From positions 101,113-165,112 of the forward strand of contig JACAEM010000004.1 in assembly GCA_013388855.1 (NCBI GenBank): DNA of 64,000 bases, read 5' to 3'. A program made the position numbers and the translations under genes. Shown here in pieces: positions 4,448 through 46,581 of this stretch (position 1 is its first letter; each line of letters begins with the position of its first letter). The notes under the pieces were generated by a model that did not search any database, was not told the DNA's origin, and worked only from the letters and a program-made list of their open reading frames with translations. This DNA comes from Chloroflexota bacterium (lineage in GTDB: Bacteria; Chloroflexota; Anaerolineae; Anaerolineales; Villigracilaceae).

Positions 4448-5575
4448 CTAATCACCCTCCAGGGCGCGGCGGCGAAGCCAGTCGAGCGCAAGATTGACCG
4501 ACCAACGCGGCAGGCTGCGCGGCGGGCCGCCGTAGGTGATGCGATGGGTCTTTTCGCCTGCCGGGGTAATGAGCGCCATCTCGGCGGCGCGTTGCTCCAT
4601 GGAAACGGCGACTCCCAACGCCGCGTCGGCGTTGGCTTCGGCGCGGGCTTTACGCAGCGTGTCCATAAGGGAATTGGGACTCAGGTCCGAAAAAGAAGCG
4701 GTGTGCGGGATTTTCTGCGCGAGCAATCCGTCCAATCCGGATTCGATGGCGGTCAACGTCCAGCCGCGTTTTGCCACCGTTTTGAGGACCACATCCTCCA
4801 GCCGGTCTTCGTCCGCGCCGAAGATGACGTCGCCCAGCCGTTCGCGCACATCAGCTTCGATCTTTGCGATCATCTCGCTGGCATCCGCTTCGTTCTTTGC
4901 CTTTGCCGCGATGCGGATATCGACCACCCCGGTATGCGCGGCAAGCCCCACAGTGGGGTTGCTGAGCGTTTCAAGGTCAGCGATCTTTTCGTCGATCATA
5001 CCCTCGCCCAGTCCGGCGCAGTGCAGGATGCGAATCTTGATGATTTCATTGAGGGCGAATCGTTTTTGCAGATACGGGATGATCGACTCGTGCAGGATGT
5101 ATTCCATCTCATTCGGAACACCAGGCAGGGAGATGACTGCGTTGCGTTCCGTTTCGACGATGAAACAAGGCGCGGTGCCAACCGGATTGGGAACGCCGAT
5201 TGCCCCCCGGGGCACATATGCCTGCCGCTTTTGATTTTCAGAGGGTTTCCGTCCGTACCGCGTAATGACAGCGACCACCTGTTCCCACAGGTCTTCGCGG
5301 AATTCCGTCTCCACGCCGACAGCTTTTGCCACCGCTTCACGCGTGGGATCGTCCACGGTGGGCCCCAGCCCGCCGGTGGTGATGACGATCTCGGCGCGCT
5401 GCATCGAATGATTGATTGCAGTAGCAATGCGTTCGACGTTATCGCCGATGGTGATGGTGCGGTACAAATCCACGCCCAGCCCGCGCAAGGCGCGTGCAAT
5501 ATACCGCGTGTTGGTATCGACGATCTCTCCAAGCAATATTTCCGTGCCGATAGTGATGATTTCTGCTGAAGGCAT
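4448..5575 (-). CDS. cinA: CinA-like competence/damage-inducible protein (MoCF-binding domain plus divergent C-terminal domain)
   Basis: The N-terminus MPSAEIITIGTEILLGEIVDTNTRYIA...VITTGGLGPTVDDPT is typical of CinA. The C-terminal GWTLTAIESGLDGLLAQK resembles the PncC-like domain. Confidence 0.85.
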   Translation of the reverse strand: MPSAEIITIGTEILLGEIVDTNTRYIARALRGLGVDLYRTITIGDNVERIATAINHSMQRAEIVITTGGLGPTVDDPTREAVAKAVGVETEFREDLWEQVVAVITRYGRKPSENQKRQAYVPRGAIGVPNPVGTAPCFIVETERNAVISLPGVPNEMEYILHESIIPYLQKRFALNEIIKIRILHCAGLGEGMIDEKIADLETLSNPTVGLAAHTGVVDIRIAAKAKNEADASEMIAKIEADVRERLGDVIFGADEDRLEDVVLKTVAKRGWTLTAIESGLDGLLAQKIPHTASFSDLSPNSLMDTLRKARAEANADAALGVAVSMEQRAAEMALITPAGEKTHRITYGGPPRSLPRWSVNLALDWLRRRALEGD

Positions 5576-7772: not shown

Positions 7773-8387
7773 TTAATTGGTTGTCTCTTGTGGGTCACAG
7801 CCTTCGGGCTTTTGCCAGTGATCTGTAATCATGGCTTCGACGTTCGGTGGTGTACAAGAAAGCCAGGGCTGGTCGGTAAGATTTGCGGCTCTCAGTCCCT
7901 GTGAGCAGGGATCGTTGACCTCTGTAAAGACGAGAACGCCACCCTCCAGTTTCCAGATGTATTCTCCCGTATCCCAATTGCAGTACGGGTCATTAAACAG
8001 ATAAATGTGATCTCCTGAAATGGTATAGGAGCCAAGGCTGCGCCAGCCATTCATTGTGTAATAGATTCTAAAAATACCTTTGTTCAAGCTGAATTTCCAT
8101 AAACCGCCTTCGAGAGCATAGTCCGGGCATCGTTTGCATGGAAAGGGCGTTGCCTGCCGCGGGTTGATCTTAACGTAGGTTGCATCGATGTCGGTTGCCT
8201 TCAGCGGCGGCAGGGGGGTGGTCCATGGTACGGGTGTTCGTTGGAAGAGTGCGTTCCAAATATCGGTTGGGATGCCTGGCGGTTGTGTATCCGTTGGTGT
8301 GGCGGGTGAACTGGCGGACGGAATGGCTGCGCAGGCTGGTAAAAGAACCAATAAAACAACAATCGAATACTTGATAACGTTTTTCAT
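7773..8387 (-). CDS. hypothetical lipoprotein
   Basis: Signal peptide with lipobox (VVLLVLLPAC). The ATG at 8387 lies 9 nt downstream of a TGCTATAAT box. The track start (TTG 8396) is less likely. No family recognised. Confidence 0.6.
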   Translation of the reverse strand: MKNVIKYSIVVLLVLLPACAAIPSASSPATPTDTQPPGIPTDIWNALFQRTPVPWTTPLPPLKATDIDATYVKINPRQATPFPCKRCPDYALEGGLWKFSLNKGIFRIYYTMNGWRSLGSYTISGDHIYLFNDPYCNWDTGEYIWKLEGGVLVFTEVNDPCSQGLRAANLTDQPWLSCTPPNVEAMITDHWQKPEGCDPQETTN

Positions 8388-8396
8388 GACTGACAA

Positions 8397-8405
8397 ATTA
8401 TAGCA
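8397..8405 (-). promoter_or_regulatory. extended -10 promoter TGCTATAAT, 9 nt upstream of the ATG (near-leaderless)
   Basis: The minus strand reads TTTTGCTATAATttgtcagtcATG. The same 9-mer and the same 9-nt spacing occur at the aspS leader ORF. The same 9-mer also precedes asnS. Confidence 0.45.
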
Positions 8406-8437
8406 AAAAGCGCAGAGGAGCGATTTCCTCTGCGCTC
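8405..8437 (-). terminator. intrinsic terminator after livF
   Basis: The minus strand has AGCGCAGAGGA / TCCTCTGCGCT, an 11-bp stem, followed by TTTTT. Confidence 0.75.
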
Positions 8438-40165: not shown

Positions 40166-40200
40166 AAACGTCCCGAAGGCTTTGTTCCTTCGGGACGTTT
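40166..40200. terminator. bidirectional intrinsic terminator between clpB and gatB
   Basis: AAACGTCCCGAAGG / CCTTCGGGACGTTT form a 14-bp stem with A/T runs on both sides. Confidence 0.8.
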
Positions 40201-40201
40201 C

Positions 40202-41699
<1,498 letters not shown>

Positions 41700-41707
<8 letters not shown>

Positions 41708-41890: not shown

Positions 41891-43351
41891 TCATAGGTTC
41901 GGAGTTTGTTTGTGCCAGTCTGTCACTTGCTGGTAGGCATGAGCAGCTTGGAACAGGGTTGCCTCGTCCAAGTGTTTGCCGATGAGTTGCATCCCGACGG
42001 GCAGGTTGTTGGAAAAGCCGCAGGGCAAGGCAATGGCAGGGACGCCAGCAGGGTTGGTCGCAACAACATAAATATCCGAGAGATACATTTCGAGCGGGTC
42101 GCTGGTCTTTTCGCCGAGTTTGAAGGCGGTGGTGGGACAGGTGGGGGCGAGGAGAAGGTCCACTTTGGAAAAAGCAGACTCAAAGTCACGGCGAAGAAGC
42201 GTGCGGACTTTTTGCGCCTTCAAGTAATACGCGTCGTAATATCCCGCCGAGAGGGCATACGCGCCCAGCATGATCCTGCTCTTGACCTCATCGCCGAATC
42301 CTTCGCGGCGGGTTTGGAGGTAGATGTCAATCACGTCCTTTGCGCCCTCCGAAACGGAGAGACCGAAGCGCGTGCCATCCATGCGGGCGAGGTTGGCGCT
42401 GGCTTCGGCAAAGAGCAGCAGATAGTAAACGGGCAAGCCGTATTTGGTGTGAGGGAGCGAGACTTCGTGAATCTCCATGCCGAGTTTTTCGTAGGTGCGA
42501 ATCGCTTCCTGCAGCGCAGACTCGACTCCCGCCTCCATGCCTGCGACGAAGTATTCCTTCGGGATGCCGAGTTTCATTCCCTTGACGGGCTGGTTGATAT
42601 GTTGTGTGTAATTAGGGACTGGGAATTGGTAGGTGGTGCTATCGTGCGGGTCGTGACCAGCGATGTGTTCGAGGACGGTGGCGCAATCGTAAGCATCCCG
42701 CGCCATGGGACCAATGCAATCGAACGAAGAGACAAGCGCGATAAGCCCGTAGCGCGAGACGCGTCCATAGGTTGGTTTGATGCCTGTGACGTTGCAAAAC
42801 CCTGCAGGCATGCGGACCGACCCGCCCGTATCTTCGCCGATGGTGAATGCCGCGAGACTTGCCGCCATGGCTGCCGCCGCGCCTCCGCTCGAACCGCCAG
42901 GGACGCGCTCCAAGTCCCAGGGGTTGTGGGTGTTGAAGAAGGCGGAGTTCTCGCACGAAGACCCCATGCCGAATTCGTCCATGTTGGTCTTGCCGAGGAG
43001 GACGGCGCCTGCCTCTGCGAGTTTATCGGTGACAGTGGCGTTGTATTGGGGGACGTAGTTTTCGAGAATCTTCGACGAGCAGGTGGTACGGACGCCGCGC
43101 GTGGAGATGCAATCCTTCATCGAGAAGGGAATGCCCGTCAGCGGGGTAACGTTCTCTCCTTTGGCGATGCGCTCGTCGGCTTTCTGCGCCTGCTCGAGGG
43201 CAAGTTCTTCCGAGACCGTGACGTAGGACCTGACCTTCGGGTCAATTTCGCGGATGCGCTGAAGAAACGCCCGAGTCAACTCGACAGAGGAAACCTGCCT
43301 GGCGATTAGTAACTGGTGAATTTCTCGAATTGTGAGTGAGTGGAGTTGCAT
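41891..43351 (-). CDS. gatA: Asp-tRNA(Asn)/Glu-tRNA(Gln) amidotransferase subunit A
   Basis: Amidase signature GGSSGGAAAAMAA and typical length. No Shine-Dalgarno sequence is visible upstream. Confidence 0.95.
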   Translation of the reverse strand: MQLHSLTIREIHQLLIARQVSSVELTRAFLQRIREIDPKVRSYVTVSEELALEQAQKADERIAKGENVTPLTGIPFSMKDCISTRGVRTTCSSKILENYVPQYNATVTDKLAEAGAVLLGKTNMDEFGMGSSCENSAFFNTHNPWDLERVPGGSSGGAAAAMAASLAAFTIGEDTGGSVRMPAGFCNVTGIKPTYGRVSRYGLIALVSSFDCIGPMARDAYDCATVLEHIAGHDPHDSTTYQFPVPNYTQHINQPVKGMKLGIPKEYFVAGMEAGVESALQEAIRTYEKLGMEIHEVSLPHTKYGLPVYYLLLFAEASANLARMDGTRFGLSVSEGAKDVIDIYLQTRREGFGDEVKSRIMLGAYALSAGYYDAYYLKAQKVRTLLRRDFESAFSKVDLLLAPTCPTTAFKLGEKTSDPLEMYLSDIYVVATNPAGVPAIALPCGFSNNLPVGMQLIGKHLDEATLFQAAHAYQQVTDWHKQTPNL

Positions 43352-43466: not shown

Positions 43467-43763
43467 CTATTCCTCTCCCAGAACCGTCGGCACTTTGATA
43501 TAGCCGCGCTCCGATTGCGGCGCGTTCTTGAGGAATTCTTCGCGGCTCATCGAATGTTGCACAACATCCTCGCGCAGCACGTTTTCGGCGTTGGCAATGT
43601 CCGAGGCGGGCGGGACGTTCGTCGTATCCACTTCGTTGAGCATGTTGAAGTAGTCAATGATGGAGGAGAACTGTCCGCTGAAGGTTTGCGCTTCCTCTTC
43701 GGAGATGCCGAGGCGGACGAGGAAGGCGATGTGTTTGACGGTTTTGGTATCAATGGTTGTCAT
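43467..43763 (-). CDS. gatC: Asp-tRNA(Asn)/Glu-tRNA(Gln) amidotransferase subunit C
   Basis: 98 aa. Contains MTTIDTKTVKHIAFLVRLGISEEEA...FNMLNEVDT, typical of GatC. The start was set at ATG 43763. Confidence 0.9.
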   Translation of the reverse strand: MTTIDTKTVKHIAFLVRLGISEEEAQTFSGQFSSIIDYFNMLNEVDTTNVPPASDIANAENVLREDVVQHSMSREEFLKNAPQSERGYIKVPTVLGEE

Positions 43764-43776
43764 AAGAGCCTCTAAA

Positions 43777-43803
43777 CACAAAGGACACAAAGTTCACAAA
43801 GAG
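43777..43803 (-). repeat. tandem 9-mer array CACAAAGNN x3 (NNCTTTGTG on the mRNA strand), aspS-gatC spacer
   Basis: The sequence is cacaaagga cacaaagtt cacaaagag, read directly. Confidence 0.8.
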
Positions 43804-43848: not shown

Positions 43849-45612
<1,764 letters not shown>

Positions 45613-45627
45613 GATGCCTCTCATTCC

Positions 45628-45692
45628 TGTCATTGCAATGTGGACAACCCGAAGCAATCCGCTCGTTGCCCTTTGAGCTCATCGCAATGACA
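45628..45692 (-). promoter_or_regulatory. 13-bp helix in the aspS 5' UTR between the attenuator terminator and the Shine-Dalgarno sequence
   Basis: On the minus-strand RNA, UGUCAUUGCGAUG (45692..45680) pairs with CAUUGCAAUGACA (45640..45628), with one G-U pair. On the plus-strand RNA the same position would be an A-C mismatch. Confidence 0.5.
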
Positions 45693-45700
45693 TGTTGTGA

Positions 45701-45745
45701 TGTAGATAAAATAAATCGCCCTTCGCGTGTGCGTTGGGCGATTTG
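45701..45745 (-). terminator. intrinsic terminator of the aspS leader (attenuator segment 3:4)
   Basis: On the minus strand, AAAUCGCCC (45745..45737) pairs with GGGCGAUUU (45722..45714). An inner CGC/GCG extension is possible. AUUUUAU follows the stem. Confidence 0.75.
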
Positions 45746-45791
45746 ATTTGACCTGTCTCTATCCATCAACTAGCAAAGCTTCGCCCAACGA
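45733..45791 (-). promoter_or_regulatory. antiterminator helix (segment 2:3) of the aspS leader
   Basis: CGUUGGGCGA (45791..45782, leader codons 22-25) is perfectly complementary to UCGCCCAACG (45742..45733). That segment shares 6 nt with the terminator 5' arm. Confidence 0.65.
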
Positions 45792-45854
45792 TAGGTCGTA
45801 TCGTCATTGTCATTATTATTGTTATTATAGGCGGGGCTGTGCTTGTTTTTCATA
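45771..45854 (-). CDS. candidate aspS-gatCAB leader peptide, 27 aa, MKNKHSPAYNNNNNDNDDTTYRWAKLC
   Basis: Translated by hand codon by codon. Codons 10-18 are AAT AAC AAT AAT AAT GAC AAT GAC GAT. The stop is TAG. There is no SD, but TGCTATAAT lies 9 nt upstream. The ORF is below the track length cutoff. Confidence 0.65.
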
Positions 45855-45863
45855 ATAGCGGCA

Positions 45864-45874
45864 TTATAGCACAG
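45864..45874 (-). promoter_or_regulatory. extended -10 promoter (TGTGCTATAAT) for the aspS leader transcript
   Basis: The minus strand reads ctgTGCTATAATgccgctattATG. The 9-mer and spacing are identical to the box at 8397..8405. Confidence 0.5.
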
Positions 45875-46188
45875 AGTTAACTTTCAAGGGCAGATTCCTG
45901 CAGGTTAGAGGGTATCTATATTACCTGTGCACCAATAAGATGGCGGGCGGCAATGCTTTGTGCCTCGCGAGTGATCTCCATGTCGAGCATTGTTCGTATG
46001 CTTTGGTCGTTTGGGCGCAGGCGTCAAGCCTGAAAATGGCGGGAAGCATACGGTCCGAGAGGAGATGCGCAGTCGAGGAGGACAATGCCAGGTCCAATGA
46101 AAATCCGGGTGCAATTTTGTCTCACGTTTGATTTGCGATATCGTATATTTTTATTGTCGATATCCATTTCACTCTACAGGAGATTGCC

Positions 46189-46581
46189 ATGAGTTACAAA
46201 TTGTTGTTTGCACTGTCTGCCATCGTTGCCGTGATTTTTGGACTAGGGTTCATGATCGTTCCCGACCGGGCGCTCCCGTTGTTTGGAACCACCGAACAGT
46301 ATGCTTCCACAATGTTTGCCGCCCGCTTCTTTGGTTTTGCGGCCTTTGCGTTTGGTCTGGTTCTCTGGTTCGCCAAGGACGCTTCAGACCCGAAGGTTCA
46401 GCGGAATCTCGGCGTGGCAAACCTGATCGTTTCCGTCGTCGGGCTGGTCATGACGCTCTACGGAACCATGGCGGGCAACGCTGTCATCCGGACGAACGCA
46501 TGGGCACCGATTGTGCTCTTCGTTCTGGGCGGTCTCGGATACGCCTTCATGATTTTCATCAAGCCAAGGATGATCCAATAA
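46189..46581 (+). CDS. small hypothetical membrane protein (four predicted helices)
   Basis: AGGAG lies 7 nt upstream of the ATG. There are four hydrophobic segments. No family confidently recognised. Confidence 0.7.
   Translation: MSYKLLFALSAIVAVIFGLGFMIVPDRALPLFGTTEQYASTMFAARFFGFAAFAFGLVLWFAKDASDPKVQRNLGVANLIVSVVGLVMTLYGTMAGNAVIRTNAWAPIVLFVLGGLGYAFMIFIKPRMIQ

Follow-up and report, generated by a model that had tools for sequence, protein, structure and literature searches.

Why should nine consecutive asparagine (Asn) and aspartate (Asp) codons stand in a short open reading frame (ORF) directly upstream of a gene for aspartyl-tRNA synthetase (AspRS)? The question arises in a 64-kb stretch of DNA (hereafter the window) from a bacterium of the Chloroflexota (contig JACAEM010000004.1, positions 101,113 to 165,112), in which a 27-codon ORF and a GC-rich hairpin precede aspS on the minus strand, with gatC, gatA and gatB further downstream. 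We consider it very likely that this element attenuates transcription by means of a leader peptide and a translating ribosome, in response to the supply of Asn- and Asp-tRNA. Its most likely targets are aspS and, in this genome, also gatCAB, which lie in the same direction. The ribosome stalling and regulated termination implied by this reading are deduced from the sequence and its predicted folds.

The minus-strand sequence was read over positions 45500..46300 of the window, and all coordinates of the leader given below refer to that strand. An extended -10 promoter, TGTGCTATAAT (TGnTATAAT, 45873..45863), is separated by 9 nt from the ATG of the leader ORF (45853..45770), which encodes the peptide MKNKHSPAYNNNNNDNDDTTYRWAKLC* and ends with a TAG at 45772..45770; the promoter is nearly unchanged in 23 of the 23 genome relatives and in most of the metagenome relatives described below. 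Codons 10-18 (45826..45800) read AAT AAC AAT AAT AAT GAC AAT GAC GAT, and no other short ORF on either strand of the window has at least six Asn/Asp residues in nine consecutive residues. An earlier note on this DNA had reported the nine codons, the extended -10 box 9 nt upstream of the ATG, a perfect 10-nt complement and a terminator. All of these features are present as read in the sequence, although every coordinate in that note was one base too high (the ORF, for example, is 45853..45770), and the note did not draw from the position of the -10 box the conclusion of a leaderless ORF that we draw below.

The leader RNA contains four segments that can pair in alternative ways. Segment 1 (45847..45829, with a core of CGCCU at 45833..45829) forms the 5′ strand of a 1:2 anti-antiterminator in the minimum free energy (MFE) folds, and it ends at the first codon of the run. 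Its consensus in the relatives is UUCGCC, which corresponds to Phe-Ala codons, and in the window its pairs extend to 45847. Segment 2 (45790..45768) holds the leader stop codon UAG and has two overlapping functions: the part GGGCGAAGCUUUGCUAGUU (45786..45768) pairs with segment 1, which is complementary to its GGGCGAAGC... sequence, and the part CGUUGGGCGA (DNA CGTTGGGCGA, 45790..45781) pairs with segment 3. Segment 3, TCGCCCAACG (RNA UCGCCCAACG, 45741..45732), is a perfect complement of CGTTGGGCGA, and the predicted antiterminator 2:3 (45790..45732) consists of a 10-bp basal helix and an apical helix. The intrinsic terminator 3:4 (45744..45706) has the form AAAUCGCCC..CGC-ACAC-GCG..GGGCGAUUU followed by AUUUUAU; its arms in the DNA are AAATCGCCC (45744..45736) and GGGCGATTT (45721..45713), followed by ATTTTAT. 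Because segment 3 overlaps the 5′ arm AAATCGCCC of the terminator, the 2:3 and 3:4 helices are mutually exclusive, as the perfect complement sharing a strand with the terminator arm had suggested. In addition, a small hairpin, GACGAUA/UAUCGUU (45805..45787), takes its 5′ arm from the last Asp codons. This hairpin had been described as a 6-bp helix that played the part of the 1:2 pairing; it does exist, with 7 bp including one G-U pair, but it is nested in a longer 1:2 pairing and is not the main 1:2 helix.

The folding energies agree with such a switch. The 171-nt leader RNA folds with -47.3 kcal/mol, which corresponds to z = -4.8 relative to dinucleotide shuffles, and none of 200 shuffled sequences was equally stable. 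In the window, the predicted free energy is -20.6 kcal/mol for the antiterminator 2:3 before segment 4 is made and -18.3 kcal/mol for the terminator 3:4 (ViennaRNA). When the RNA available at each stage of transcription was folded for 133 leaders, the 1:2 helix formed in 115 (median -21.3 kcal/mol), the 2:3 helix formed in 130 before segment 4 existed (median -21.7 kcal/mol), and the 3:4 helix formed in all 133 (median -18.7 kcal/mol); for 127 of these leaders, the terminator is also part of the full-length MFE structure. Every member has, 3′ of the ORF, a GC-rich hairpin and a U-tract with 8 U in 10 nt. The hairpin at 45744..45713 escaped a simple terminator scanner, because its stem has an internal loop larger than that program allows.

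The same arrangement is found in the relatives of this bacterium. A search with the AspRS protein against one genome per GTDB species gave 80 loci, of which the 25 closest (AspRS 70-93% identical) belong to metagenome-assembled genomes of the Anaerolineales/Chloroflexota and the remaining 55 (approximately 47-56% identical) belong to other phyla. Sufficient upstream DNA was available for 23 of the 25, and all 23 of these Anaerolineales aspS loci carry the extended -10 box, an Asn/Asp short ORF, CGTTGGGCGAAGC and the terminator AATCGCCCRACGC..GCGAAGGGCGATTTATTTTAT, and short Asn/Asp ORFs followed by terminators are what the earlier note had proposed to look for upstream of aspS orthologues. An Asn/Asp leader ORF was found in none of the 55 aspS loci of other phyla, nor was any such ORF found in 745 kb of control loci (both strands summed); in the 1.17 Mb of all loci examined there are just four unrelated ORFs with an Asn/Asp run. 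Furthermore, a scan of metagenomes with the terminator motif alone yielded at least 120 loci. Among the 120 matches listed, 115 have an Asn/Asp leader ORF, with 108 distinct peptides, and aspS follows in 104 of the 109 listed matches with enough downstream DNA. The five matches not followed by aspS comprise one each of a chance hit inside a coding region, a strand-assignment artefact, a contig that is too short, a leader followed by unrelated DNA, and an apparently orphan leader. Altogether, more than 130 independent sequences share this architecture.

Two loci are arranged otherwise. In L142 (970..1114, minus strand), an intact leader and terminator are followed by a convergent membrane-protein gene and no aspS, and in L113 (1343..1493, minus strand) they are followed by unrelated DNA, possibly a mobile element. 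These two leaders may be orphan attenuators or the result of rearrangements.

Base-pair changes among 134 aligned leaders are consistent with the predicted helices. The 1:2 core helix is paired in 92.6% of cases and shows compensatory changes at three pairs, with both of its strands lying outside the search pattern. The nested hairpin is 89% paired and covaries, with UA replaced by CG in 16 sequences and AU replaced by CG or GC in nine. The 2:3 basal helix is 98.3% paired, and its one variable pair is UA in 65, UG in 49, CG in 15 and CA in two sequences. In L022, the most divergent of the genome relatives, all three helices are kept with a different sequence (GCUCGGGCG:CGCCCGAGC). Covariation in the 2:3 and 3:4 helices had been named beforehand as a check. 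The compensatory changes lie instead in the 1:2 helix and the nested hairpin; the 2:3 helix offers its one variable pair and L022, and segments 3 and 4 hardly vary.

Whether the ORF is translated can be judged from the pattern of its substitutions. In the 24 leaders used for codon counts, the runs contain 212 codons, namely 98 AAT, 46 AAC, 36 GAT, 30 GAC and two others, and the third position is T in 135 and C in 77 of them and is never A or G; this is so although the genes of the window use Lys and Glu codons at least as often as Asn and Asp codons. In the wider set of 134 leaders (alignment A2), the runs comprise 727 Asn and 367 Asp residues against 26 other residues, with a median of nine Asn plus Asp residues per leader and a median ORF length of 27 amino acids. 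The run varies from three to 13 codons, in steps of whole codons and constantly in frame with the ATG. The N-terminal residues of the leader vary freely, and conservation of the peptide beyond the run is limited to the Phe-Ala before it, the codons of which coincide with RNA segment 1. Moreover, two reading frames are used at the C-terminus (...YRWAKPC* and ...IVGRSFAG*) over constant nucleotides, and the stop codon begins 13 nt (104 of 134) or 9 nt (15 of 134) after GGGCG, so that in 119 of the 134 leaders, in either frame, segment 2 would lie under a ribosome that has reached the stop codon, as originally proposed. Because of the third codon positions, the variable peptide over a fixed RNA, the length changes by whole codons and the start signals described below, we believe that the leader ORF is probably translated. 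A glutamine residue is present at leader position 2 in 31 of the 134 leaders and at position 4 in 31 (e.g., MQYQLRF...); in bacteria without GlnRS, Gln-tRNA(Gln) is another product of GatCAB.

The leader thus displays the structural features of a leader-peptide attenuator, namely a short ORF, cognate codons, a terminator, an antiterminator that shares a strand with it, a 1:2 helix in the appropriate place, and a stop codon in the appropriate position. The trp/his/pheST-type geometry first suggested for the single sequence holds well in view of its conservation in more than 130 sequences, the coding-type substitutions and the kept helices.

The start signals indicate how translation might begin. 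Most members place the ATG 7-10 nt (usually 9) beyond the -10 box. The spacer (45854..45862 in the window) is GC-rich and conserved, including an A at position 7, and has the consensus GCCGCC-A-YN-ATG. The transcription start site would then lie approximately 7 nt after the -10 box (near 45856), leaving a 5′ untranslated region (UTR) of approximately 3 nt. With so short a spacing, which leaves no room for a Shine-Dalgarno sequence, the leader ORF is probably leaderless or nearly so. A more distant subgroup, with AspRS 59-63% identical to that of the window, has its ATG 22-39 nt away from the -10 box, and a GGAG or GAGG Shine-Dalgarno sequence precedes this ATG at 7-12 nt.

This Shine-Dalgarno subgroup (L085, L098, L111, L117, L122, L151, L166, L170, L185, L089, L119, L147 and L160) has the same terminator, a 5′ UTR of 19-39 nt, three to five Asn/Asp codons and another peptide tail, ...LRRARGFRLQGN. 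Most of the members scored have an AspRS that is 59-66% identical to that of the window; L147 is 87.5% identical, and L085 is outside this scoring. Elsewhere in the window, at 8385..8407 on the minus strand, the sequence TTTGCTATAAT is followed 9 nt on by the ATG of an ORF of approximately 204 amino acids (MKNVIKYSIVVLLVLL...), which is likely a second leaderless gene. Because this second gene has the same layout of a -10 box and an ATG 9 nt further, leaderless starts seem to be normal in the host organism. E. coli promoters under stringent control have GC-rich discriminators; more speculatively, the GC-rich spacer could add growth-rate control to the operon.

We propose the following mechanism. 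Transcription would start a few bases past the extended -10 box, and translation of the 27-codon ORF would begin at, or almost at, the 5′ end of the transcript. With ample Asn-tRNA(Asn) and Asp-tRNA(Asp), the ribosome would cross the nine codons and move over segment 2 towards the stop codon in the 5′ strand of the antiterminator; with segment 2 covered, segment 3 would pair with segment 4 and transcription would terminate before aspS. The terminator would also form without translation, through the 1:2 pairing. A shortage of either charged tRNA would make the ribosome stall in the run, on or next to segment 1, where it would sterically block the 1:2 pairing. Segment 2 would then be free to pair with segment 3 once the latter is transcribed, the terminator would not form, and aspS, with gatCAB where present, would be transcribed. 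A non-discriminating AspRS would supply both Asp-tRNA(Asp) and Asp-tRNA(Asn), the latter of which would be converted to Asn-tRNA(Asn) by GatCAB; a run of Asn and Asp codons together would report the output of the whole pathway.

Several observations weigh against this interpretation or parts of it. Segments 2, 3 and 4 are near-invariant, and covariation in the antiterminator and terminator amounts to the one variable pair and L022; the metagenome set is moreover subject to ascertainment bias, since the search pattern itself dictated segments 3 and 4. A fold in which a ribosome footprint of 30 nt is masked still yields the 1:2 helix and the terminator in nearly all sequences, so the folding comparison recommended in the earlier note succeeded for the 2:3 and 3:4 helices in the nascent RNA and failed for the masked RNA. 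Masking ignores steric exclusion and the order of transcription, and the nascent-RNA folds were used instead for this purpose. Because of the masking result, the antiterminator outcome requires a steric argument, that a ribosome between segments 1 and 2 would leave no linker for their pairing, and a kinetic argument, that segment 2 would meet segment 3 before segment 4 is synthesized. We know of no study of transcription-translation coupling in Chloroflexota. Regarding the operon, the gaps between aspS, gatC, gatA and gatB are 58, 115 and 183 nt, and with such gaps the co-transcription of aspS and gatCAB is presumptive. In addition, among 34 loci with at least 2.5 kb of downstream DNA, 21 have gatCAB after aspS on the same strand and 13 lack it there. 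Finally, the two-residue AspRS signature discussed below is a weak predictor of a non-discriminating enzyme.

The 13 loci with aspS alone still have Asn-rich leaders. Since gatCAB is linked in only 21 of the 34 loci and Asn-rich leaders are kept without it, the leader is, as far as gene order indicates, tied to aspS and not to aspS-gatCAB as such. The match between the Asn/Asp codons and the function of the operon, to which attention had been drawn at the outset, stands in this genome; the element itself belongs to aspS. In several loci the gap between aspS and gatC measures 0.6-2.3 kb, suggesting inserted genes or repeats.

Other explanations of the same features must be considered. The repeat of AAY and GAY triplets could be a non-coding binding motif, such as the (ARN)n motif of Hfq, a Crc-type A-rich motif or a site for autoregulation by AspRS or GatCAB, and the bound factor could set the switch. 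AAN repeats do resemble known A-rich motifs, the family CrcZ gives a near-hit via AAnAAnAA (E = 0.93, 12 bits), and the alternative helices would equally suit a switch controlled by a protein. However, a motif with a free N is difficult to reconcile with 212 run codons in which the third position is never A or G, and the exchanges of A and G at the first position (Asn and Asp) break the ARN pattern. The run is also in frame with an ATG that either has the leaderless position or has a Shine-Dalgarno sequence, and it changes by whole codons between three and 13 while the position of the stop codon remains fixed in two frames. We regard a binding motif as extremely improbable. The reading of the C-terminus in two frames over constant nucleotides, together with the lack of peptide conservation outside the run and the Phe-Ala codons, also argues against a functional Asn/Asp-rich small peptide, for which the hairpin would merely be the terminator and aspS would have its own promoter. 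The conserved and probably translated ORF, and the leader and terminator of L142 without aspS, would be in agreement with such a peptide, but a plain terminator does not need a segment 2 that is complementary to segments 1 and 3 in nearly all members. Moreover, aspS comes next in 104 of the 109 metagenome matches listed, and no promoter-like site appeared between the terminator and aspS when 45400..46400 was scanned; the small peptide is in our view the least probable explanation of all.

It could also be argued that the attenuator acts mainly on translation or mRNA stability, or that it senses general translation stress instead of the charging of Asn- and Asp-tRNA. A long hairpin does lie between the terminator and the ribosome-binding site (RBS) of aspS, and RBS sequestration is the reported mode of action of the mycobacterial polycysteine ORFs, which are the best studied among leaderless sensory ORFs (bioRxiv 10.1101/834739). 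An effect on translation does not account for the GC-rich hairpin and U-tract that follow the ORF in every member, and the aspS RBS is located 90-150 nt further on, past a mobile palindrome, and is unpaired in the window fold; general stress does not account for a codon content specific to Asn and Asp. We consider these possibilities very improbable, and the transcription attenuator is retained as the preferred reading.

If the attenuator has the function proposed, the type of AspRS becomes relevant to its Asn codons. A two-step route to Asn-tRNA(Asn), by a non-discriminating AspRS and then GatCAB, has been described (PMC4206432). The Asn codons in an aspS leader would make sense if AspRS also charges tRNA(Asn). 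Two residues of AspRS, at positions 31 and 83, reportedly influence the recognition of tRNA(Asn). When the N-terminus of the window AspRS was aligned to Protein Data Bank structures, it showed the motif RRRDHGG (His31) at position 31 and Gly at position 83, as do the Asp/Asn non-discriminating enzymes of P. aeruginosa (4wj3) and M. tuberculosis (5w25), whereas the discriminating enzymes have RRRDLGG with a deletion at position 83 (T. thermophilus, 1efw) or RRRDLGS with Lys at position 83 (E. coli, 1c0a). Among members of the leader family, 109 of 111 have His at position 31, compared with 24 of 51 enzymes from other phyla. By this signature, the AspRS of the window would be non-discriminating in activity. 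No tRNA genes were found in the 64-kb window, where tRNA(Asn) was sought for the U1-A72 pair that GatCAB needs.

A more specific proposal is that the leader is a feedback sensor devoted to the indirect (tRNA-dependent) synthesis of Asn-tRNA(Asn). The approximately 2:1 ratio of Asn to Asp codons would read the step of AspRS alone and the combined steps of AspRS and GatCAB in one transcript, and leaderless initiation by 70S ribosomes would load the first ribosome once the 5′ end leaves RNA polymerase. We advance this proposal tentatively and rate it at somewhat less than an even chance. If true, the leader would be the first described ribosome-based sensor of a transamidation pathway, and Asn codons in an aspS leader would be a predictor, available from sequence alone, of a non-discriminating AspRS; such codons are already a hint of the same kind that the enzyme charges tRNA(Asn).

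The element was compared with known systems. In a cmscan search of 45400..46300 against all 4227 families of Rfam (Rfam 15, E ≤ 10), the two hits were at chance level, namely STnc310, on the opposite strand at the terminator hairpin, and CrcZ, at the A-rich repeat. A T-box, a known amino-acid leader (His, Trp, Thr, Leu and others) and the small-RNA families were rejected as candidates, with no Rfam match at that threshold. Judged by these models, the element is separate from the amino-acid leader families of Rfam. No Asn/Asp leader for aspS or gatCAB was found described in the searchable literature, and aspS is not mentioned in the main text of Weinberg 2017. The element therefore appears to be undescribed, and its specificity for Asn plus Asp appears to be new within the searchable literature.

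The closest likeness in architecture can be seen among attenuators that are well known from enterobacteria. The pheST attenuator and those of trp, his and thr work through a leader peptide and three-helix logic. The E. coli pheST attenuator (pheM) resembles the present element in controlling a synthetase operon with cognate codons, in its 1:2, 2:3 and 3:4 helices and in its intrinsic terminator. However, pheM has only Phe codons and a Shine-Dalgarno leader ORF, occurs in Proteobacteria, and has no similarity in sequence or Rfam model; the present leader has two codon types, an enzyme that probably charges two tRNAs, and a probably leaderless ORF. The trp, his and thr attenuators of enterobacteria share the three-helix logic and the role of the stop codon, and the thr and ilv leaders likewise mix codons for different amino acids, but these attenuators control biosynthetic operons instead of tRNA charging and belong to another phylum. 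For the regulated pathway, the closest functional analogue would be the T-box that reportedly controls the tRNA-dependent amidation genes of Clostridium acetobutylicum. This T-box reportedly acts on the same pathway by antitermination in response to tRNA charging and can read two specificities, yet its RNA is said to bind uncharged tRNA directly, with neither a ribosome nor a leader peptide.

For the leaderless sensory ORF, the closest analogue appears to be the mycobacterial polycysteine system, in which stalling in leaderless ORFs reportedly signals amino-acid supply to the downstream genes (Canestrari et al., bioRxiv 10.1101/834739). The two systems would share a short sensory ORF, leaderless in mycobacteria and probably so here, with consecutive codons of the same kind; the mycobacterial ORFs differ in having Cys codons, in belonging to Actinobacteria and in acting on translation, whereas the output here would be an intrinsic terminator. 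An output by unmasking of an RBS was not found in this leader, the aspS RBS being approximately 90 nt past the terminator and unpaired in the predicted fold. Furthermore, His leader peptides have been predicted before hisS paralogues in bacilli (Naville and Gautheret 2010, PMC2965389). These are also predicted attenuators before a gene of a synthetase family, outside Proteobacteria and Actinobacteria, but they have His codons, occur in Firmicutes and have no sequence relation to the present leader.

The mechanism proposed here is of the textbook type and would be a solid addition without conceptual surprise, not a new kind of system. It would extend classical leader-peptide attenuation to the Chloroflexota (Anaerolineae). 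Anaerolineae are abundant in sludge, sediment and soil, and their gene regulation is hardly characterised. The leader would also be a rare regulatory signal tied to the indirect Asn-tRNA(Asn) pathway, for which the Clostridium T-box is, to our knowledge, the sole other regulatory example. Moreover, with more than 100 distinct leaders in both leaderless and Shine-Dalgarno versions, this set is suited to the study of switch evolution and to the definition of an Rfam-type family.

The downstream genes had been named as aspS, gatC, gatA and gatB, and NCBIfam profiles identify all four, each above its curated cut-off and on the minus strand: aspS, aspartate--tRNA ligase, at 43849..45612 (NF001750, 859.8 bits), with the RBS GAGAGG at 45622..45617; gatC at 43467..43790 (TIGR00135, 100.9 bits); gatA at 41891..43351 (TIGR00132, 598.4 bits); and gatB at 40202..41707 (NF004012, 631.9 bits). 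Because the TIGR00135 match begins at residue 13, the true start of gatC may lie a few codons inside the ORF at 43467..43790. Between gatB and the convergent gene clpB, the terminator scan found a hairpin with a 14-bp stem that includes 8 G-C pairs (40166..40200), which is likely a bidirectional terminator that closes the aspS-gatCAB unit.

The hairpin between the attenuator terminator and aspS resembles a palindromic repeat of approximately 65 nt, GTCATTGCGA..GGATTGCTTCG..ATTGCAATGAC (45628..45693, minus strand), with a fold of -31 kcal/mol. Homologues occur at the same place in most relatives, and in L011 the same element is located between aspS and gatC (4766..4860). Upstream of aspS, such repeats were noted in L001, L002, L009, L011 and L018. 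In several relatives, a repeat of another type (AACCACAAAGGACA...CTTCGTGGT) occupies the position of the palindrome. Within the window, the motif of the palindrome occurs just this once. A role of the palindrome as a second regulatory element was considered and rejected, given its relocation in L011 and its replacement by another repeat in relatives. The aspS RBS lies 90-150 nt beyond the terminator, past this variable palindrome (approximately 90 nt in the window, where it is unpaired in the fold). The palindrome is probably a mobile insertion of the repetitive extragenic palindrome (REP) or miniature inverted-repeat transposable element (MITE) kind, outside the switch, and seems to represent a mobile family in Anaerolineae.

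On its other side, the attenuator promoter is situated inside a 315-bp divergent intergenic region (45874..46188). The gene on the opposite strand begins with an ATG at 46189 and encodes a small membrane protein of 130 amino acids (MSYKLLFALSAIVAVIFGLGF...), and in L128 a gene similar to this one also adjoins the aspS leader on the opposite strand.

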